Assembly: GCA_033549025.1 (NCBI GenBank)
Contig: JAWSUS010000001.1
Coordinates: 171,685-235,684 of the forward strand
DNA length: 64,000 nucleotides
Reading direction: 5' to 3'
Source of the DNA: Desulfuromonadales bacterium
GTDB taxonomy: Bacteria; Desulfobacterota; Desulfuromonadia; Desulfuromonadales; SZUA-540
The notes beneath the pieces were generated by a model. The model saw only the letters and a list, made by a program, of their open reading frames with translations. It ran no database searches and was not told the origin of the DNA. Numbering within the stretch: the stretch's first letter is position 1; the number at the start of each line of letters is the position of its first letter. The translations under genes were made by a program, and so were the position numbers. Positions 52,039 through 62,366 of this stretch are shown here, in pieces.

Positions 52039-52587
52039 TCAACCATCCTTGAACAGGTCGCTGGGAGCAGCCTTCTGCTGTCCCTTCTGCACGCCGGGCG
52101 AACTCGAAGCCCTGTAAACGAATTCCCAGTCCCGGTATGCCGCCTTCCCCTTGAACCCGCTGTTCTCTTCTGAAAAGTTGTCCTGCTGGAAGGGCTTCAG
52201 GCTGCTGGAACTGCGCACCCCCATGATGCGACCGCCGGGATCTCTGATCAGCACCCATTCCCCCCCTGTCATCGGCTCCGGATAGAGCCGGCGGATGTGG
52301 CGCCGGATTTCGAGGCTGCGCGGATCTTTGAGCAAATCGTCCAGCGTATTGGGATAACTTCTCGCCTGCGGCCTCTGCCCTGCTCCGCTGGAAAAGAGGT
52401 AATAACTGCCAATCGCCTTACGGTACTGCTCCCCCCGCCACAGCAGCTCTTTTTCCCGCGCCTGCTGCACAACCGTCTTCCAGCTTGAGCCCGCCAGGCC
52501 GGCGGTCAATCCCACCACCGTCACCATGACCAGAACCATCATCAGCGTCAGGCCGCGCTGGTTTTTCAGAGGCTGCAAAAAGATCAT
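52039..52587 (-). CDS. Type II secretion pseudopilin-like protein
   Basis: Class III signal KNQRG|LTLMMVLV (no Glu5), REKELLWRGEQYRKAI, YPNTLDDLLKDPR, RRLYPEPMTG. Confidence 0.85.
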   Translation of the reverse strand: MIFLQPLKNQRGLTLMMVLVMVTVVGLTAGLAGSSWKTVVQQAREKELLWRGEQYRKAIGSYYLFSSGAGQRPQARSYPNTLDDLLKDPRSLEIRRHIRRLYPEPMTGGEWVLIRDPGGRIMGVRSSSSLKPFQQDNFSEENSGFKGKAAYRDWEFVYRASSSPGVQKGQQKAAPSDLFKDG

Positions 52588-52605: not shown

Positions 52606-54462
52606 TCATTGCAGAGTAAAAGTCCAGACGTCACTTTCGCTGACAGCACCGTGGCTGTCCTCGGTGACGACTTTCCAGTAATACGTCCCCGGCGCCAGAC
52701 CGTCAACCTGATATTTCACGATCTCAACAGGTGTCGGCGTGACGCTTCCCGAACTGCCACCGCCCCCACCTCCGCCACAGGAAACCAGCAACCAACCAGC
52801 CGCCACCAGACATAGCAGCAACGATATCGCGCCATGGCGTCGTTTTGACCACAGGCCCGCGCCCAGCAAGAGTCCGGTCCCCAGTAAAAGGATCGTCGAT
52901 TCAACAAGTGACGTGTCAACGTAAGTATACGGTGAAAATTCAGCATTTTCAGCATAAACAAGGGTTTCTGTCAAAGGGTCGCCATTGGCATCCGTTCCCC
53001 TCGCCCACTCGAACACCACCGAGGAACCGACAAGATCAGCGCCATTTGCCGGGGCGCGAAGCTGGGCGGCGACGGGGGGAACGTTGAGCTGCTTGTAGGC
53101 GGCGAGGGCGTTGACCAGGCCGTAGCCGTAGTAATTATCTGGACCTGCCTCGCCGAGATCCGTTGCCCCGCCTGTCAGGGCCCTTTCCAATTCAGCGGAG
53201 GAAGCGTTGGGAAAAGCATCGAGCAACAAGGCCATGACACCTGCCACATGAGGCGTGGAGAACGAGGTGCCGGAGTAAAGCGCGTACGGAAAAGAAGGGT
53301 CGTTGGTAGAGGTCTCGATATATTCGCCGGGGGCGGTCAGCTCGGGATAGATGGAGCCATCACAGGTCGAAGGCCCGACAGCGCTGAAGGTCGAGACGAC
53401 CAAGGTCTTGCTGACACTTCCCACAGCCACCGACTCCGGGTAATTTGCCGGACTGATGTCACCCGTTTGTTCTGTATTGCCTGCGGCAAAAACCACCGCT
53501 ATCCCAAAAGACTTAAGCGCGCTGACAGCTGGTTGGAAGTCAAGAATACATCTATTGACTTCGTCATCAAAGCCCCAGGAATTATTGACAATATCGGGAG
53601 CGTCATCGGTTGAATCTACCCCGTCAGGGTTAAGCATCCATTGAAAGGCCAGGAGTATCTTGGAGTTATCCGCATTCCCCTCGTCATCGAAAATTTTAGC
53701 TGCAATCCACTGGGCCGCCGGAGCAACACCAATACCGTTGTCACCCAAGATAACACCAGTGACAGCCGTTCCGTGCCCTGAAGCTTCAGGATCTGCGGGA
53801 TACAAGGGGTCATACGGAAGTGTCGTGTTTTTATACGGGTCAAACCAGCCGCCGTTTTCACGCCACTTGGCTGCCAGGGCCGGATGCGTCACATCAACGC
53901 CGCTGTCCATCACGCCCACGACGACACCTTCCCCTTCGTATCCTTTGGCCCACAAATCCGGGACCTTTACGGCGCCCAGGTTATCCCAGGCACTAGTCAT
54001 GGCAATGGCCTGAGGCGCAGGCGAACTCAGGCGAATGACCTCGTCATAGCGGATGGATTCCACCTCGGGCAGTGCGGCGAGGTCTTCTACTTGGGCAGCG
54101 GTCAACTGCACCGCCAGCGCGTTGATAAGCCAGAGGGGACGCTCTCCCGTTACCCTCTGCTGACGGAGATAGCGGATAACGTTCTGCTGGCTGCCGACGG
54201 CGTGGCTCCGGAGATAACGGATGAGTTTGGCGCGGGCGGCGGCCCGCTCTTCACATCGCCTCATCCCGCGCACCGCGAAAGACTCTACCTCCGGCGGCGC
54301 CGCAAATTGGATGATGACCGGAACAACCTCGTCCGCGGCTGTGGATTTCAAAGTACCCTGAAGCCTTTGATCCAGAACCGCTCCGGAGGCGCCGCCGATC
54401 ATGAAGCTCGTCATGAAAAAAAGAAGCAGCAACGCCGGGCCACTGTATTTTTTTAAATTCAT
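52606..54462 (-). CDS. S8 (subtilisin-like) serine protease with C-terminal membrane segment and Fn3-like domain
   Basis: Signal peptide, propeptide, triad VMDSG / GHGTAVTG / GTSFSTPHVAG, oxyanion AAGN, GPDNYYGYG. Confidence 0.93.
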   Translation of the reverse strand: MNLKKYSGPALLLLFFMTSFMIGGASGAVLDQRLQGTLKSTAADEVVPVIIQFAAPPEVESFAVRGMRRCEERAAARAKLIRYLRSHAVGSQQNVIRYLRQQRVTGERPLWLINALAVQLTAAQVEDLAALPEVESIRYDEVIRLSSPAPQAIAMTSAWDNLGAVKVPDLWAKGYEGEGVVVGVMDSGVDVTHPALAAKWRENGGWFDPYKNTTLPYDPLYPADPEASGHGTAVTGVILGDNGIGVAPAAQWIAAKIFDDEGNADNSKILLAFQWMLNPDGVDSTDDAPDIVNNSWGFDDEVNRCILDFQPAVSALKSFGIAVVFAAGNTEQTGDISPANYPESVAVGSVSKTLVVSTFSAVGPSTCDGSIYPELTAPGEYIETSTNDPSFPYALYSGTSFSTPHVAGVMALLLDAFPNASSAELERALTGGATDLGEAGPDNYYGYGLVNALAAYKQLNVPPVAAQLRAPANGADLVGSSVVFEWARGTDANGDPLTETLVYAENAEFSPYTYVDTSLVESTILLLGTGLLLGAGLWSKRRHGAISLLLCLVAAGWLLVSCGGGGGGGSSGSVTPTPVEIVKYQVDGLAPGTYYWKVVTEDSHGAVSESDVWTFTLQ

Positions 54463-55820
54463 AGAACCCTCGCAAGGAAACCTCTGGTTTCAACCGGGGG
54501 AGGAATTGCGATCCGTCGTGAGACGGAAGGCTTTGGTTGATAGGTGTAGCCGTCAGCCTGATGCACGATCCGGCAGTGCCGGTAAGATATGCCCTGGATC
54601 GTTCCGAAGGCCGTCGCGATATTGAATCTGCCGCTGGTTCTAACGGCGACACGGCCCAAGTGCAGACCGGCTCTTTTGCCGGAGGGAACGACGGCTTTAA
54701 CCTGGTCACCTGTGCGAAACCCCTGCACGAAGCGAGCACTCTTGGCGCTGGTGCGGGGGATGCCGAAGCGATCCATACGGCACATCTGACGGCTGCCCCG
54801 TCCCGTGGCGGTGATGGATAAAGGGGCCTGGTCGGGTTTCAGTCGCACGGTATCTCCAGACTCACCCACACATGCCGCGTCAATCCAGTGGGCCTTGGGA
54901 TAGTGCAGCCCAGTGCGGTTGTACTTGGTCCGACCGCCAGACCAGAAAGAGACGGGTAGCCCCAGCGTTTTAACCGCATGGCCGATGGCGTAGCGGGTGG
55001 CGTTGACGGCAGCGGAATCATTGAGCGGTCGCTTTAATTGACCAAGGATCTTTTGGAGCTGTTCCGGCCGGTCAGCCAGAAATTCCTGCACGGGCCGATT
55101 GCCTTTGCGTTCGTTGCAGTCCCGACACGACAGGGTAAGATTACTGATCCGGTTGGAGCCGCCTTTGCTTCTGGGAACGACATGCTCGATCTCCAGCGGC
55201 ACATTCTCGTCCCCACAATAAACACAGCGTCGCTGCCATTTTTCCAACAGATACTCGCGAACCTCGTAACCAAATAGCGTCCCTTGCTGGTATTCCACGC
55301 CACTAATCTCCGGGTTCTCGGCTTTCTGCAAATCAAACCTCACCGTTTCGACCGCAACGCTGGTGATCGGGCAGAGTCGTTGCAGCCGCTTTGCCAGCGT
55401 CAGGACGTTGTTGACTCTGGACTGCAGTGACGGTGGCAACCAGCCTTGTGGCCGAGTCCGGTTATCGAACCGGGGCGCACGGTAGCGGGTCTTGCGATGA
55501 CGCCGTGAACGCCGGATCGCCCGACGGCTTTCGAGGGCTTTTTTGATGGCTGCGCCTCGGTGGTGCAGTTCCGCGCACCAGAGAACGGTATTGGCGGAGT
55601 CGTGGTTGCCTACGAGGGCAACACCGGTGGTCTTGCTGCCCGGATCGAGCTTGAGTTCGACCGATTGCACATCCCCGCCGGTGCGGTGCTTCAAAACAAT
55701 AGTGAACGGGTAGCGGCGATACACCGCCGCCTTTCCGTTTCGCAGGAGCATTCTGGCCCGTGCCGGCGAGCAAGGGGAAAGGGGTTGTTTGGTATTGTCG
55801 AGTACAAAGACTCTCTGCAT
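54459..55820 (-). CDS. iscB: RNA-guided endonuclease IscB (453 aa)
   Basis: PLMP domain (VFVLD...PLSPCSPARAR...PFTI), RuvC-I LDPGSKTTG, Arg-rich bridge helix RRAIRRSRRHRKTRYR, RuvC-II VETVRFD, HNH CVYCG...IEHVVPRSKGGSN...CRDCN, RuvC-III HWIDA. Confidence 0.96.
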   Translation of the reverse strand: MQRVFVLDNTKQPLSPCSPARARMLLRNGKAAVYRRYPFTIVLKHRTGGDVQSVELKLDPGSKTTGVALVGNHDSANTVLWCAELHHRGAAIKKALESRRAIRRSRRHRKTRYRAPRFDNRTRPQGWLPPSLQSRVNNVLTLAKRLQRLCPITSVAVETVRFDLQKAENPEISGVEYQQGTLFGYEVREYLLEKWQRRCVYCGDENVPLEIEHVVPRSKGGSNRISNLTLSCRDCNERKGNRPVQEFLADRPEQLQKILGQLKRPLNDSAAVNATRYAIGHAVKTLGLPVSFWSGGRTKYNRTGLHYPKAHWIDAACVGESGDTVRLKPDQAPLSITATGRGSRQMCRMDRFGIPRTSAKSARFVQGFRTGDQVKAVVPSGKRAGLHLGRVAVRTSGRFNIATAFGTIQGISYRHCRIVHQADGYTYQPKPSVSRRIAIPPPVETRGFLARVL

Positions 55821-56097
55821 CGTTGTACCTTTTAAGTACCGGGTTACCCCGGCTTTCTCGCCTTGCGGCGGTAAAGTCTCCCTCGGCAAGGTTGTGAAAC
55901 GGTTTAACGTAGACGGCACCGACGCTTTACCCAGAACGTCTTTTAACCGGCTACCGCAGAGCCTGGAACTGGGAGGGCATTCCAGGGTGCCTATTTCGTT
56001 TCCAACGTAGCCCGTCAGCGATCTCTCGCTGGTGGCTGTGCCCGGTCAATCCAGACTTGTTGCTACAAGCCTCTGACTTCAGTCAGGGGTGATTGAC
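54463..56097. mobile_element. Non-autonomous IS200/IS605-family iscB (OMEGA) element, ~1635 bp
   Basis: Bounded by TTCAT (54458-54462) on the left and ...GATTGAC on the right. Near-identical subterminal hairpins CCTCTGGT-TTCA-ACCGGGGG (54481-54500) and CCTCTGAC-TTCA-GTCAGGGG (56070-56089). Contains iscB and an omegaRNA; no tnpA, no target duplication. Right junction uncertain by about 2 nt. Confidence 0.9.
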
Positions 56098-56117
56098 CGT
56101 CTGTGACCTCGCTGTTT
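55821..56117 (-). ncRNA. omegaRNA (HEARO-like scaffold) with predicted 5' guide
   Basis: Scaffold begins GTCAATCACCCCTGACTGAAGTCAGAGGCTTG at 56097. Closing stem GTCAATC/GATTGAC; hairpins CAGCGA/TCGCTG, CTGGAA/TTCCAG, CGCC-GCAA-GGCG, CCGGG/CCCGG; potential CTCCC/GGGAG pseudoknot. Guide inferred as flank 56117-56098. Transcript ends are inferred. Confidence 0.85.
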
Positions 56118-56544
56118 ACGGATTACTATACATTCTACTGCACTGTGCTCTCCAAGAACAGCCATCAAAATCATCTGACCAGGCGATACGGGACATCCGC
56201 TTTGCGATTTAACCGGATTGTTTCCAGCAGTTCGGGCAATTGACCAGTCGTTGGCTCATTCGAATGGCCTTCTTCACCTTCTGAAAAAGTCCGAGCAACC
56301 TCAATACTTTCTCACCCGTTGGGGCATTTCCCCTATGGCCTTTCAGCCAAACGGCAGACAGTTCCTAACCGCCGTCAGAAAAATCATCCTAAAAACCTCA
56401 ACAAAGATCTGTTAAAATAGACCCTGCCTTAAAAAGTTCGCGAATCCCCCCATTTCGACCTAGGGCAAACCCCCTTACCTGAGCATGTGGTCGATCAGCT
56501 AGGCAACCGTGCCTGACAACCCCGCCGAAAGAGCAGATCACCCT

Positions 56545-56560
56545 TGGTGCAGCTCTTGCA
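56545..56560 (+). promoter_or_regulatory. Candidate sigma54 (-24/-12) promoter for the secretion operon
   Basis: TGGTGCAGCTCTTGCA: GG-N10-GC with TTGCA, about 70 nt upstream of the gspF-like ATG. Confidence 0.5.
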
Positions 56561-56628
56561 AACAAGCCTTTCGGCGCTATTATTTCAGGGTCATGCCCCT
56601 TTTTTAATGTAAGTATATTGGCGACATC

Positions 56629-57837
56629 ATGGGCACTTTTCGATGCAAAATAGGGACCGCTGACGGGCGGATCCTGGAAAAAGACCTGGATGCCGCCAGC
56701 AAGGGGATCCTGAAGGAGAGCCTTGAGGATCAGGGCTTCCATGTCTTTCGCATCCAAAGACGCGGGCTGCCCCTCTCAGGGGCCCTCAGCGGTCAGCAAG
56801 GGCGTCTGAGCAGCAGCCGCTTTCTCTCTTTCAATCAGGAATTCCTGGTTCTGCTGCGGGCCGGGCTGCCCATCCTGCAGGTACTGGACACCATCATGGA
56901 GCGGATGGAGTCAGGGCGCCTGCTGGAAATCCTGCGGGAAATCCGCGAGGATGTCAAAGGAGGCAGCTCCATCAGCGAGGCCTTCAACAGATTTCCCACC
57001 GTCTTTCCTTCCCTTTATATCGCCTCCATCCGGGCGGGGGAACGCACGGGTGAACTCCCCGTGGCCATCGAGCGTTTTATCGCCTACCAGAAACGGGTGG
57101 AGGCCATCAAAAGCAAGGTTCGCAACGCTTCTTTCTACCCGATCCTGCTATCGACGGCGGTGATTGCCGTGGTCCTTTTTCTCATGCTGTTCGTCATCCC
57201 CCGTTTCACGCAGGTCTACGCTGATGCCCAGGTAGAGCTGCCCCTGATGACCCGTTTTCTCATCACCGTCTCTCAGGGCATGGGAAAGGCAGCACCCCTG
57301 CTGGTGCCGCTTGTCATCCTGCTGGCTTTCATGGCCCGGGGATTTCTGCGCACCGAAAAGGGATATTGGCTGCGCGACAGGCTCAAACTGGTTCTTCCCT
57401 TTTTCGGTCAGCTTTTTAAAGACTATGCCCTGCTCAGTTTCTGCCGCACACTCGGCACCACCCTGGCCAGCGGCATCCCGGTGGTGCAGGCGATGCAGAT
57501 GTCCCGTGGCACCCTGAATAACCGCCTGCTGGAAGAGCGGCTGAGCCTGGCTGTCCGCCGGGTCCAGGAAGGCACCTCGCTGTCGGAAGCCCTGGAGGAG
57601 ACCGGTTTCTTTCCCAAACTGGCTCTGCGCATGATCGGCGTGGGCGAAACAGGCGGTTCTCTTTCTTCCATGCTGGAGGATGTCGCCATGTATTACGAGG
57701 GCGAGGTGGAAAAGAGGCTCGACCGTCTGACCACCCTCATCGAACCGGCGATGATGATGACCATAGGCCTGCTGATTGGGGCTATCGTCGTCGCCATGTA
57801 CCTGCCCATTTTCCAGCTTGCCGGCACGGCCGGCTGA
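56629..57837 (+). CDS. Type II secretion/type IV pilus inner-membrane platform protein (GspF/PilC family)
   Basis: LLRAGLPILQVL, AGERTGEL, YPILL, GVGETGGSL, LIEPAMM...AMYLPIF. Confidence 0.93.
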   Translation: MGTFRCKIGTADGRILEKDLDAASKGILKESLEDQGFHVFRIQRRGLPLSGALSGQQGRLSSSRFLSFNQEFLVLLRAGLPILQVLDTIMERMESGRLLEILREIREDVKGGSSISEAFNRFPTVFPSLYIASIRAGERTGELPVAIERFIAYQKRVEAIKSKVRNASFYPILLSTAVIAVVLFLMLFVIPRFTQVYADAQVELPLMTRFLITVSQGMGKAAPLLVPLVILLAFMARGFLRTEKGYWLRDRLKLVLPFFGQLFKDYALLSFCRTLGTTLASGIPVVQAMQMSRGTLNNRLLEERLSLAVRRVQEGTSLSEALEETGFFPKLALRMIGVGETGGSLSSMLEDVAMYYEGEVEKRLDRLTTLIEPAMMMTIGLLIGAIVVAMYLPIFQLAGTAG

Positions 57838-57856
57838 CGATATCGGGAGTTCGCGG

Positions 57857-59590
57857 ATGAATTTTGAGCGCAAAAAGATCGGGGAAATCCTGGTGGAGAT
57901 GGGGAACCTCACTCCTTCAGAGGTTAATCTGATCCTCGAGGAGAAGGGCGACAGCTACCGGCGTTTCGGCGAAACGGCCATCGCCAAAGGGATGCTCAAA
58001 GAGGACATTCTCGCCCAGGCTCTGGCCCGCCAGTTCCGCATGGAGTATCTTGATCCCGATTCGTTCAGCCTGGATGCGCAGCTCTATGCCGCCATTCCCA
58101 CCGGCCTGCCCGCCCGCTTCAATTTTCTTCCGATACGGCAACAGGGGGATGCCCTGGTGGTGGCCGTGGGCGACCCCACGGACGTAGCGGCTCTGGACAA
58201 TCTCGAGGTTATTCTCGGGCGTCCGCTCATACTGCAGGTGGCGCCGGCCGAAAGAATCCATCTTTTTCTCGAGCGCGCGGACGGGGGCTCCAAGCATGTC
58301 CTCAAGGAGGTGTCGGAAGACTTCAAGCTGCAGCTGGTAAAGGAGACGGACAAGGGGGAGGAAGTGCTCTCCATCGAGAAGCTGACGGCGGACACCAGCC
58401 CCATCATTCGCCTGATCGACTCGACCCTCTACGACGCCCTGGGCAAACGGGCCAGCGACATTCACATTGAGGCCAGCCACGAAGGGGTGATCATCAAATA
58501 CCGCGTCGACGGCGTGCTCTACCGCGCCACCGAGCCTCTCGACGGCCGTTTCCAGAGCCCGATCATCTCCCGCATCAAGGTCATGAGCGAACTCGACATC
58601 TCCGAGCGCCGCGTCCCCCAGGACGGCCGCTTCAAGGTGCGTCTGGGCGGCAAGTCCATCGATTTCCGTGTCTCCATCATGCCCAGCAGCTTTGGCGAGG
58701 ACGCCGTCATCCGTATTCTCGACAAAGAGGCCATCGCCTCCGACCTCAAGGGGCTGACGCTGGAGGCCCTGGGCATCAGCCCGCGAGAGATAGAACGTCT
58801 GCGCCGCATGATCCGCGAGCCCTACGGCATGGTGCTAGTCACGGGGCCGACGGGCAGCGGCAAAACGACCACCCTCTATGCCGCCCTGTCTGAAATCAAC
58901 AACGATCAGGAGAAGATCATCACCATCGAGGATCCGGTGGAATACCAGGTCTCCGGTGTGGTGCAGATCCCCGTCAACGAGAAGAAGGGGCTGACCTTTG
59001 CCCGCGGCCTGCGCTCCATCCTGCGCCACGACCCCGACAAGATCATGGTGGGCGAAATCCGCGACCCGGAGACGGCCCAGATCGCCGTGCAGTCGGCACT
59101 GACGGGACATCTGGTTTTCACCACAGTGCATGCCAATAACGTCTTCGACGTACTCGGCCGTTTTCTGCACATGGGTATCGATCCCTACAACTTCGTCTCC
59201 TGTCTCAACTGCGTCGCCGCCCAGCGCCTGGTGCGACGCATCTGCCCCAAATGCAAAAAACCCGTGCACTATGATCGTCAAACCCTTGAGCAGTCGGGCC
59301 TGAGCTTTGAGCAGTACGGCGATTTCACCTTCTACGAAGGAGCCGGCTGCGAAGACTGTCACGGCATGGGCTACAAAGGGCGCAGCGCCATTGTCGAACT
59401 GCTCGATCTCAACGATGAACTGCGGGAGCTGATCGTCCAGAAAGCCCCGGTCACCCAGCTGAAGAAGGCCGCCAGAGAGGCGGGCACCATCTTCCTGCGG
59501 GAAGCGGCGCTGGAAAAAGTCTTTGCCGGCCTGACCAGTCTGGCGGAAATCAACCGGGTAACCTTTATCGAACAGGTGGAGCCATCGTGA
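57857..59590 (+). CDS. Type II secretion/pilus assembly ATPase (GspE/PilB family)
   Basis: N-terminal RKKIGEILV (MshEN-like), ASDIHIE, PQDGR, GPTGSGKTTTLY, TIEDPVE, LRHDPD, CPKC/CEDC. Confidence 0.95.
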   Translation: MNFERKKIGEILVEMGNLTPSEVNLILEEKGDSYRRFGETAIAKGMLKEDILAQALARQFRMEYLDPDSFSLDAQLYAAIPTGLPARFNFLPIRQQGDALVVAVGDPTDVAALDNLEVILGRPLILQVAPAERIHLFLERADGGSKHVLKEVSEDFKLQLVKETDKGEEVLSIEKLTADTSPIIRLIDSTLYDALGKRASDIHIEASHEGVIIKYRVDGVLYRATEPLDGRFQSPIISRIKVMSELDISERRVPQDGRFKVRLGGKSIDFRVSIMPSSFGEDAVIRILDKEAIASDLKGLTLEALGISPREIERLRRMIREPYGMVLVTGPTGSGKTTTLYAALSEINNDQEKIITIEDPVEYQVSGVVQIPVNEKKGLTFARGLRSILRHDPDKIMVGEIRDPETAQIAVQSALTGHLVFTTVHANNVFDVLGRFLHMGIDPYNFVSCLNCVAAQRLVRRICPKCKKPVHYDRQTLEQSGLSFEQYGDFTFYEGAGCEDCHGMGYKGRSAIVELLDLNDELRELIVQKAPVTQLKKAAREAGTIFLREAALEKVFAGLTSLAEINRVTFIEQVEPS

Positions 59591-60492
59591 TTCGACGCAC
59601 CTATCTGGGACTGGACCTGCATGCCGGCCAAATCGCCGCCGTCGCCCTGCGTCGCCAGGGCAAAGGCTCCCTGTTGACGGGATCGGCCACCTCCCCCTTG
59701 CCCATGGACATCCTGAAGCCGTCCCTGCGCGATCCCAACATTCTCGACCCTGGGGCCTTTCAGAATAAAATCCGCCAGGCTCTGGGGCCATTGGCCGGGC
59801 GGGAGGACCGCATCGCCCTGTCTCTGCCTGAAGGATCGGGAAGGCTGCTGCTGACGGACACGGATACGGCTTTTGCCTCCCACGAAGAAGGGCGTGACAT
59901 CCTGCGCTGGCAGCTTAAAGCCCAGTTTCCCGCCGACCCCAAAGAAATTCAGCTGGACTACCAGGTGGTTGGAAAAACCGAGGGCGGGCGATACCGGCTG
60001 GCCGTTGCCTTTGCGACCCAAAGGGTCCTGAGTCAGTATGAAGAAGTCCTGTCACAGATCGGCTTCAATCCGGCCCATATCGATTTTCACACCCTGAACC
60101 TCTACAACTACTACCGGCCTCGCATCGATCTGGGGGAAGATTTTTTTCTCGTCGCCATCGAAGAAAATTCCTTGAGCCTGCAGTTTTTCCAGGGGCACCA
60201 CCTCGGTTTCCATCGCAGCCGCGACATCGAACCTTCCACCGAAGCCCTCTTTCAGGAACTGCTCAGAACCCTGGTCGGCTGCGCCAAAGATTTCCCCAAA
60301 TCCAGCCGGGCTGCCGTTTATCTGCACACCAACTGGCCGAACCGGGATGAGTTGTCCGACCCTCTCCGCTCAGCCTTTGGGCGCGAGCCGATACATCTCG
60401 ATCCCCATATCGATCGCATGGGTTCCGTTTCGGCCCTCATCCGCCCCCAAGATCTGGCCGCCGCTATCGGCGCGGCCGAACGTATGATGTGA
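59587..60492 (+). CDS. PilM-like cytoplasmic assembly protein
   Basis: YLGLDL N-terminal strand, IALSLPE, IQLDYQ, AAAIGAA; GTGA overlap with the ATPase. Confidence 0.78.
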   Translation: MIRRTYLGLDLHAGQIAAVALRRQGKGSLLTGSATSPLPMDILKPSLRDPNILDPGAFQNKIRQALGPLAGREDRIALSLPEGSGRLLLTDTDTAFASHEEGRDILRWQLKAQFPADPKEIQLDYQVVGKTEGGRYRLAVAFATQRVLSQYEEVLSQIGFNPAHIDFHTLNLYNYYRPRIDLGEDFFLVAIEENSLSLQFFQGHHLGFHRSRDIEPSTEALFQELLRTLVGCAKDFPKSSRAAVYLHTNWPNRDELSDPLRSAFGREPIHLDPHIDRMGSVSALIRPQDLAAAIGAAERMM

Positions 60493-60500
60493 GGCTTTTG

Positions 60501-61061
60501 ATGAAACCACAAATCAATCTCGCCAGCCGTTCTTATATCAATCGCCGGGGCCTTAATGCGCTGTACGCCGTACTCACGGTTCTCTTTCTTCTCCTGCTGA
60601 TTCTCAGCGGGCGCACTCTATTTTCGCTGCAGGCAAGACAGAGCCAGACCGAAACACACCTGGCCGAAGTCAGACAGACCCTGGGTTACCTGAAAAACGA
60701 TAAAAACGCCAAGCAGACCACCAGCGAGCTGGCGGCTCTGCGACAGGAAATCGCCTGGGCCAACGCCATACTGCTGCAGGATAGTTTCCGGTGGACCGCC
60801 CTGCTCGGCCACCTGGAAGAAGTCATCACGGAGACCACCCGCATCCGGGCGATTCAGCCCCAATTCAAGGAAGGGTCTCTCAAAATCAGCGGCGTGGCAA
60901 AGAACGTGACGGCTCTGCAGGATTTTCTCGATCGGATCGTCGCCTCGCCCCATTTTACCAGCGTCTATCTCTTCAGTCAGAGTCGGGTGGAAATCAAGGA
61001 TGCCGGCGGGCGCCCCCGCGAGGCGTTGAATTTTTCTCTCGAACTCAAGGGGGCCTTCTGA
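60501..61061 (+). CDS. PilN-like protein
   Basis: QINLA motif, single TM, coiled coil, WTALLGHLE, LKISGVA. Confidence 0.8.
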   Translation: MKPQINLASRSYINRRGLNALYAVLTVLFLLLLILSGRTLFSLQARQSQTETHLAEVRQTLGYLKNDKNAKQTTSELAALRQEIAWANAILLQDSFRWTALLGHLEEVITETTRIRAIQPQFKEGSLKISGVAKNVTALQDFLDRIVASPHFTSVYLFSQSRVEIKDAGGRPREALNFSLELKGAF

Positions 61062-61062
61062 T

Positions 61063-61638
61063 ATGAGCAGAGAGCACCTGATTCTGACTGCCTGGAAGCA
61101 GAATAAATTGTGGCCAAGCCTTTTGATGGTGCTGCTGCTGGCCAATGTCGCCCTTTTTGTGGTGGGAAACCAGGTCATCGCCCCGAAGGTGATGCGCCTG
61201 GAAGAACAGCTGGTAAAAAACCAGGCGGAAGCCCGGCTTGCCCGCCAGCAGGGAACCAACGCCGCTACTCCTGAAAATATTCTGATCCGCGGCAGGCAGG
61301 ATCTGCAATCCTTCCGCGAGGCGATACCGGGTAAGGAAACATTCAGCGAGTTGATCGGCGATGTGTCCCTGCTCGCCAACCGCGCCGGCCTGGAAATTGA
61401 CCAGATCACCTACGCCCCCGAGGAAAAACCGGAAGAAAAGCTTCTGGTCTATTCTCTATCCTTTACCGTTTCGGGAAGTTACCGACAGCTCAAAAAATTC
61501 ATTCATTCCCTGGAGCACTCCCCCCGGCTGATTGCCATACAGGAGCTTTCCCTGAGCGGCAGCAGTGAAAAACAGCAGGAAGGTGTCAGGATGCAGATAC
61601 GCCTTTCCACCTACTTCACTTCGGAGGTGGAACGATGA
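61063..61638 (+). CDS. PilO-like protein
   Basis: Single TM, coiled coil, VSGSYRQLKKFIHSLEHSPRLIAI. Confidence 0.82.
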   Translation: MSREHLILTAWKQNKLWPSLLMVLLLANVALFVVGNQVIAPKVMRLEEQLVKNQAEARLARQQGTNAATPENILIRGRQDLQSFREAIPGKETFSELIGDVSLLANRAGLEIDQITYAPEEKPEEKLLVYSLSFTVSGSYRQLKKFIHSLEHSPRLIAIQELSLSGSSEKQQEGVRMQIRLSTYFTSEVER

Positions 61639-62366
61639 ATAAAAAAAATCTGCTCGTGCTGCTGCTTGCCCTGCTCGGCCTCTCAGTCGCCTACGCGATT
61701 ATTCAATACCCCCGCCAGCAGAAAATCGCCCAAGGAAAATCGCCTGCCGCCAGAACCGCGAAGGATGACCTTTCGACCAGGGTGAGCGCCGATCCCGATC
61801 GCGTCCGACTCGATTTGCTGACCCCGGCCGATGAGTCTTTTGCCGCCCCCCAAAAAGATCTCTTCGGGCCTTTGTACCGCCCGGTGGCCCGCACCTCAAA
61901 GCCGGCGGCTCGCCCCCAGGTGAAGACGCCCGCGCCACCCCCTCCCCCACCACCGCAGCCCGTCCAAAAACCGCTGGCGCCCCTGCCTCGTTTTACTGTC
62001 CTGGGCTCGCTGGAAAAGGCCGGAGATAAACAGGTTTTTCTCTCTCTCGGTTCCGAATTGTATCTGGTCAGGCAAGGTAGCCGTTTTGGTCCTGGAGAAA
62101 AATTCCGTGTCGTCGACATGACTGACCGTCAACTGAGCATTCGCATGACCGGCGAAGACCGACTGATCACGTTGCCGCTGGTGGACAAAACGGCGGGGAA
62201 ACCCCTGGGGATCAAACGCAAGGTTTCAGCGCCCCTGCGTGAGCCGCTGCCGGCTACGGCAGAGCCGGTGGAACTGACCCTGCCTGAGAGCCCGACCCCG
62301 CAAGAACCACCGCCCGAGACTCCCATGGAAAGCGGCTCGGTTCCGTATCTGAAAATGCCCGAATGA
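61635..62366 (+). CDS. PilP/GspC-like proline-rich protein
   Basis: N-terminal TM, KDLF, Pro-rich linker, FTVLGSL...VFLS...LYLVRQG; between pilO-like and secretin genes. Confidence 0.7.
   Translation: MNKKNLLVLLLALLGLSVAYAIIQYPRQQKIAQGKSPAARTAKDDLSTRVSADPDRVRLDLLTPADESFAAPQKDLFGPLYRPVARTSKPAARPQVKTPAPPPPPPPQPVQKPLAPLPRFTVLGSLEKAGDKQVFLSLGSELYLVRQGSRFGPGEKFRVVDMTDRQLSIRMTGEDRLITLPLVDKTAGKPLGIKRKVSAPLREPLPATAEPVELTLPESPTPQEPPPETPMESGSVPYLKMPE

Follow-up and report, generated by a model that had tools for sequence, protein, structure and literature searches.

A non-autonomous IscB–omegaRNA element located between the ribosome-binding leader and the start codon of a subtilase gene in a Desulfuromonadales bacterium

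The window analysed here, a stretch of 64,000 nucleotides (nt) from contig JAWSUS010000001.1 of a Desulfuromonadales bacterium, contains on its minus strand an open reading frame (ORF) of 453 aa, which lies between a structured, RNA-like region and the gene of an S8 peptidase (Table 1). An earlier note on this DNA, made from the letters alone, had recognized at this position a complete IscB–omegaRNA nuclease of the class OMEGA (short for obligate mobile element-guided activity), and had predicted its guide and its target-adjacent motif (TAM). The comparison with a second genomic copy and with empty alleles showed that the ORF and the structured region belong to an ISC-type unit of the IS200/IS605 family, read from 56097 to 54463, the ends of which are exact.

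Both ends were fixed by means of the second copy and of the alleles lacking the element in G001 and G002, two genomes of the same genus. The genome contains two copies in total, and the other one (G000:C2:278595-280229; L008, L031) aligns with the copy of the window, hereafter copy 1, over 1635 bp, the 25 differences between them being 23 substitutions and 2 indels of a single base; the similarity stops exactly before GTCAA and after ATGAA. The locus of copy 1 is empty and scarless in G001 and G002, and the site of copy 2 is likewise empty in both. In the empty allele of G002 the predicted 20-nt guide runs straight into ATGA with 20/20 identical positions (17/20 in G001). Both copies of iscB are full length with open frames, and their products differ in 11 residues, none of them catalytic. 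Among 60 other genomes searched, the element was present in one, G052, with two copies showing 73% protein identity. Four of the 11 protein differences between the two copies occur within the last 8 residues, a region overlapping the left-end hairpin. The two IscB elements of G052 (G052:C2; L030, L032) lie about 60 kb apart on a second replicon, with phage- or plasmid-like genes around them, and one of them has a Shine-Dalgarno (SD) motif before the scaffold and ends before ATGGA.

The 453-aa ORF is an IscB, a member of the family ancestral to Cas9, whose nuclease residues are apparently intact and for which cleavage is predicted. The NCBIfam profile guided_IscB (NF040563) scored it at 459.9 bits, far over the cut-off of 175, in agreement with the assignment in the earlier note, which had proposed a hidden Markov model search with IscB profiles; Pfam recognized the RRXRR (PF14239, 250 bits) and HNH domains. 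The IscB motifs comprise D59 (in DPG), E158, H311, D314 and E212-H213, and two CxxC pairs at 199 and 232. In the alignment with the OgeuIscB chain 7XHT, residues D59, E158, H311, D314 and H213 correspond to D61, E193, H340, D343 and H247, named as catalytic by Kato et al. 2022 (PMC9640706), and both the split RuvC (D, E, H, D) and the HNH histidine are present, as had been claimed. The N-terminus aligns with the solved IscB chains, which shows the N-terminal PLMP domain. The protein thus resembles OgeuIscB–omegaRNA (PDB 7XHT, 7UTN) and TbaIscB (PDB 9K30) in its PLMP domain, split RuvC, arginine-rich helix and HNH, but differs from them in its distant sequence (E 3e-30 and 7e-49), its length (453 versus 496 aa), a PLSP motif and an HNH with two CxxC pairs. 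A longer form of 486 aa, starting from an upstream GTG, was dismissed because this GTG is inside the RNA scaffold and because, in the form that starts with ATG, the alignment with the solved IscB chains already begins at residue 3. An assignment to Cas9 or to CRISPR-associated IscB was likewise rejected, the Cas9 profiles giving 52 of the 375 and 32 of the 100 bits required, and a CRISPR-type repeat array was not found in 54300-56300.

The 277 nt upstream of iscB begin with GTCAATCACCCC at position 56097. The HEARO model of Rfam (RF02033) matched with all its positions (1-211 of 211) at 56097-55871, with 134.7 bits against a threshold of 83 and an E value of 8.6e-28, and this was the sole Rfam match at gathering score within the window. 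The highly structured region of about 275 nt described in the earlier note, together with the covariance-model search suggested there, is borne out by this match and by the folding of the end of the element on the omegaRNA side, for which a z-score of -4.2 was found, with 0/200 shuffles equally stable. The opposite (left) end alone folds no better than shuffles (z -0.18 and -1.36; 80/200 and 17/200 equally stable). Compared with the HEARO model, the only oddity is a hairpin longer by 14 nt after the 5' stem. A sigma-70-like site at 56125-56154 (minus strand), from which transcription would start about 20 nt before the scaffold and give a guide of that length, was weak (9 of 12), and its -10 hexamer is not conserved in G001 and G002; it was not used.

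The twin subterminal hairpins are on the plus strand exactly as previously written. A loosened form of their pattern matched 4 times in the genome (3.39 Mb), each time at an end of one of the two copies, and the bases of the right-end hairpin double as the 5' stem of the omegaRNA. An inverted repeat pairing the two ends was not found among the repeat pairs listed (25 of 28). Beside the hairpins, GAAA on the left and CAAG on the right may act as DNA guides towards TCAT and TGAC. The register of such pairing, which is taken from IS608 and from these ends themselves, would bring guide bases 1 and 2 opposite motif bases 2 and 1, and base 4 opposite base 4; both GAAA/TCAT and CAAG/TGAC fit this register. 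The pairing of four-base DNA guides beside the end hairpins with target and cleavage motifs was described by Meers et al. 2023 (PMC10055086).

As to the TAM, ATGAA follows both copies and the empty allele of G002 joins the guide to ATGA, in line with the predicted ATGA(A); the TAM of GstIscB, TTCAT, is the reverse complement of ATGAA (PMC10055086). A third insertion site, described below, reads ATGAC, and the fifth base of the TAM may therefore be flexible. Six Y1 transposase matches were found in the genome, three of the IS200/IS605 type, of which one is complete (133 aa, beside tnpB; NF033573, 146.6 bits) and two are truncated where contigs stop. The tnpA-tnpB IS605 elements of the genome (L001:184-1890; L002; L003) are of two kinds, and L002 and L003 are truncated in this way. 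The ends of all three allow a reading in the same pairing register, and their hairpins share the TTCA loop with the IscB element, which is a lead only, the boundaries having been placed by eye; these tnpA-tnpB elements are candidates for the mobilization of the IscB element in trans.

Three distinct flanks precede the identical start of the scaffold, two in the genome copies and one in an RNA-library contig. The flank is continuous with ATGA in the empty alleles, and the guide is thus drawn from the DNA beyond the right end of the element; the location given for it in the earlier note was correct, the length of 20 nt being an assumption. No full target for the guide of either copy was found among the 27,955 ATGA sites of the genome (78-contig assembly, with 9,464 bases withheld), and the best seed was 8 nt. 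The RNA evidence consists of contigs assembled from four metatranscriptome runs of two studies. A contig of run X3 bridges the leader of a transketolase gene and the scaffold, and a contig of run X2 bridges the third flank and the scaffold. The RNA contigs skip 56123-56425 and none bridges the guide flank of copy 1, which is uninformative in either direction.

While the positions of TAM and guide had been read properly, it had been overlooked that the S8 peptidase gene begins with the ATG of the TAM and that the guide is the displaced SD (ribosome-binding) leader of the same gene. The stop codon of iscB is the TGA of the flanking ATGA, which gives a stop/start overlap with the peptidase gene. 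The peptidase orthologues in G001 and G002 show 76-80% identity along their whole length and have the same start position. Copy 2 lies between the SD and the ATG of a gene for a 663-aa transketolase, with anti-SD duplex energies of -8.0 and -6.8 kcal/mol. The third flank, from the X2 contig, is identical in 30/30 bases to the start of argJ in this genome, directly before ATGAC. Since argJ itself is uninterrupted here (L139:1634; G000:C1:341633, minus strand), the third site is polymorphic, and 3/3 sites known for the element are therefore SD/ATG junctions, each with a matching empty allele. An in-frame ATG exists 14 codons upstream in argJ; the ArgJ profile begins at residue 7 counted from the junction ATG. 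The start of the peptidase gene reads ATGAA here, whereas G001 and G002, in their empty alleles (L010, L011), have ATGAC.

Table 1. Position of the element, its parts and the adjoining host sequences in the window
Feature	Position	Strand	Basis
Entire ISC element of IS200/IS605 type (1635 bp), non-autonomous and without target duplication	54463..56097	minus	second copy; empty alleles
iscB ORF, 453 aa and stop codon	54459..55820	minus	NF040563; PF14239 and HNH; translation
omegaRNA scaffold (HEARO match)	55871..56097	minus	RF02033, whole model
Two terminal hairpins past the HEARO match, probable 3' end of the omegaRNA	55838..55870	minus	sequence and fold
Guide flank: host DNA, displaced peptidase leader (20 nt, assumed length)	56098..56117	minus	copy-to-copy difference; empty alleles
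ATGAA, both TAM and target of the transposase; the peptidase gene starts with its ATG	54458..54462	minus	ATGAA follows both copies; start of ORF 54462-52606
Subterminal hairpin of the left end (54481-54500), preceded by the four-base DNA guide GAAA; predicted pairing with target TCAT	54477..54500	plus	sequence pattern
Hairpin of the right end (56070-56089), preceded by the four-base DNA guide CAAG; TGAC as cleavage motif (56094-56097)	56066..56097	plus	sequence; fold; predicted pairing
Native SD-like motif GAGGT, 8 nt before the junction	56106..56110	minus	anti-SD duplex -7.2 kcal/mol
SD-like GAGGG in the element end, 4 nt before ATG, candidate replacement ribosome-binding site	54467..54471	minus	anti-SD duplex -6.4 kcal/mol
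Intact host gene of an S8 (subtilase) peptidase of 618 aa; insertion target, outside the system	52606..54462	minus	PF00082, 171 bits

Relatives of the element were collected in two scans, which provided 23 loci from genomes and, out of 145 from metagenomes, the best 80. The addition of both own copies and of the pair in G052 brought the number of loci processed to 107; the end pattern was not found in 22, and the loss of further loci, in which the 3' end was lacking or the junction was a duplicate, left 63 distinct junctions, or 59 after exclusion of the own copies and of two doubtful loci (L070, L110). The search pattern required ATG or GTGA and favored certain guides, and the counts of GANA guides (57/63) and of ATG in the TAM are therefore circular. 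The background used throughout is this one genome. An ORF of at least 80 aa starts from the junction in 37/53 informative relatives, whereas 29% of the 27,679 ATGA sites in this genome have one. In 19/32 relatives a host SD motif lies before the opposite end (background 12%), and both features occur together in 14 of the 28 two-ended relatives versus 5% of ATGA sites. A Pfam family (E 1e-8) was assigned to 26 of the 37 junction ORFs, and in 20 of these 26 the match to the first domain begins no later than profile position 10 and within the first 40 residues, as true starts would be expected to show. The fifth target base is A in 43/59 relatives versus 27% of the ATGA sites in this genome, and a HEARO match was present at the iscB position in 19/20 related loci scanned. 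Two pairs of loci (L036/L064 and L123/L126) have a common 5' flank and different 3' flanks, for which chimeric assembly or recombination between copies may be the explanation. One IscB element is followed, about 750 bases further downstream, by a match to a group II intron domain (L061:2422-2506).

The locus is best described, with a probability of about 0.9, as a recently mobile, non-autonomous IscB element (ISC, OMEGA) of the IS200/IS605 family, which takes its guide from a host leader and is often docked between the SD and the ATG of a host gene; the position of the copies would follow from the target itself, since this is ATGA. A Y1 transposase encoded elsewhere would bind the two subterminal hairpins of the plus strand and, as expected from IS605 biology, insert or excise the element scarlessly, immediately ahead of ATGA. 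A host transcript running from the peptidase leader into the scaffold would make this leader the 5' guide of the omegaRNA, the position of the guide being observed and the start of the transcript presumed. On excision the guide and ATGA would be rejoined, the empty site would be cut by IscB, and repair off the filled copy would restore the element. The downstream gene is intact and is probably still translated by way of the SD-like motif in the element end and the ATGA stop/start overlap. The cutting of empty sites and the restoration of the element have been shown for GstIscB and TnpB (PMC10055086), and the same study provides the family precedent for a flank-derived guide needing outside transcription, for donor-joint cleavage and for TnpA acting in trans.

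Some of the data weigh against this description. The element has no tnpA, and the system called complete in the earlier note is therefore complete as a nuclease module yet non-autonomous. The RNA-library contigs give neither strand nor ends and may stem from DNA, so that the expression of the omegaRNA is only putative, and the third insertion site derives from a single contig of a single run. Moreover, the PLMP motif of the protein reads PLSP (residues 13-16). Since mutations of PLMP reduce cleavage according to Kato et al. (PMC9640706), this substitution could indicate a copy that is intact in sequence but inactive as a nuclease or no longer mobile, and the presence of two copies only in the genome points in the same direction, as does the fact that a TnpA element with the same ATGA target was not identified in this analysis. 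Such a loss of function is nevertheless improbable, because all five mapped catalytic residues are kept, PLSP is found also in the 73%-identity relative L032, and the third, polymorphic site points to recent movement. A domestication of this IscB, by which it would now serve the peptidase and the neighboring type II secretion/pilus genes as partner or regulator, is very improbable. Although iscB is co-oriented with the peptidase gene and overlaps its start, the element was not found in 59/60 other genomes searched and the other copies precede unrelated genes; the congeneric genomes have the peptidase locus without the element, and a partnership with the peptidase was rejected on account of these empty alleles.

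For the mobile element thus described, it is tempting to speculate that start codons serve as a niche for IscB elements with an ATGA target. In such a niche the host promoter and leader would supply the guide, the end of the element would replace the ribosome-binding site and a stop/start overlap would be formed in some families, so that downstream genes stay translated. We consider the chances of this being true to be about even. Alternatively, with odds a little short of even, docking may reflect survival only, insertions into ATGA inside genes having been lost and the SD-like end motif being a by-product of the left-end stem. In this element GAGGG comes immediately after the CGCAA/TTGCG stem at the left end, and among the relatives the motif is patchy, the two largest element families, which make up 32/61 rows, accounting for 29/42 end motifs (29/32 of their rows versus 13/29 of the others). 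The stop/start overlap is limited to 16/59 relatives, and Meers et al. leave undecided between insertion and retention the orientation bias that they report (PMC10055086). On the other hand, an SD-like motif at SD spacing was found at the element's own end in 40/59 relatives against 12% of ATGA sites, a proportion which, inflated as the count is by kinship, goes beyond what survival alone would give. The survival explanation and the description of the locus favored above differ in cause only, and genomes cannot separate targeting from survival. The use of start codons as a niche, if true, would mean harmlessness without splicing and a nuclease TAM that doubles as a start codon, even at housekeeping genes (transketolase, argJ), and the three sites of this element, in one lineage and each with its empty counterpart, provide a clean natural series for this idea.

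The class of the system, its target motif and its mechanism are already published, as the earlier note had said of the class, and the element is a further IscB member. Kapitonov, Makarova and Koonin 2016 (PMC4810608) established the junction of N and ATGA as the target of ISC elements with a 5'-GT terminus. The present element is like their ISC1-1_MA, ISC2-1_HM and ISC2-1_MS in being IscB-only, in its 5'-GT(CA) terminus, in its precise insertion before ATGA and in having ends fixed by empty sites, and is unlike them in being a new family member from another host. It shares with ISGst5, the GstIscB element of Geobacillus stearothermophilus (PMC10055086), the TAM motif, the scaffold at the right end and the 5' guide derived from the flank, whereas TnpA in trans and donor-joint cleavage were tested for ISGst5 and are predicted here. 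What is added is one candidate nuclease of compact size (453 aa) for which an ATGA TAM is predicted, and tested enzymes with such a TAM exist.

The docking of IscB elements at start codons was not found in the literature searched, most subscription journals lying outside its reach. In their accessible parts, Meers et al. (PMC10055086) report an orientation bias relative to the upstream gene and not docking between SD and ATG, and the term start codon appears once in the bioRxiv version, in a figure legend. Neither this term nor translation occurs in the main text of Kapitonov et al. (PMC4810608) as available to us, and the former is absent from the accessible text of the 2026 OMEGA review (PMC13565253), of the HEARO enzyme paper (PMC9755519) and of the insertion sequence ecology paper (PMC13548323). 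The available part of the IsrB structure paper (PMC9581776) mentions an SD only before isrB itself.

The surroundings of the element include an ORF of 119 aa at 56398-56757 (minus strand) which is probably not a gene, to judge from the lack of a family match and from the corresponding DNA of G001 and G002, which has single-base indels and, in G002, an in-frame stop. Divergent from the peptidase gene, a type II secretion/type IV pilus-like cluster occupies 56629-62366 (plus strand) and 52039-52587 (minus strand); the GspF/PilC family was confirmed for 56629-57837, the remaining genes of the cluster being named by eye. The C-terminal part of the peptidase (52606-52900, minus strand) gave a weak match to the lipo-invert anchoring domain NF058595 (23.9 bits, below the cut-off of 37); in relatives, other proteins carry this tail by itself.

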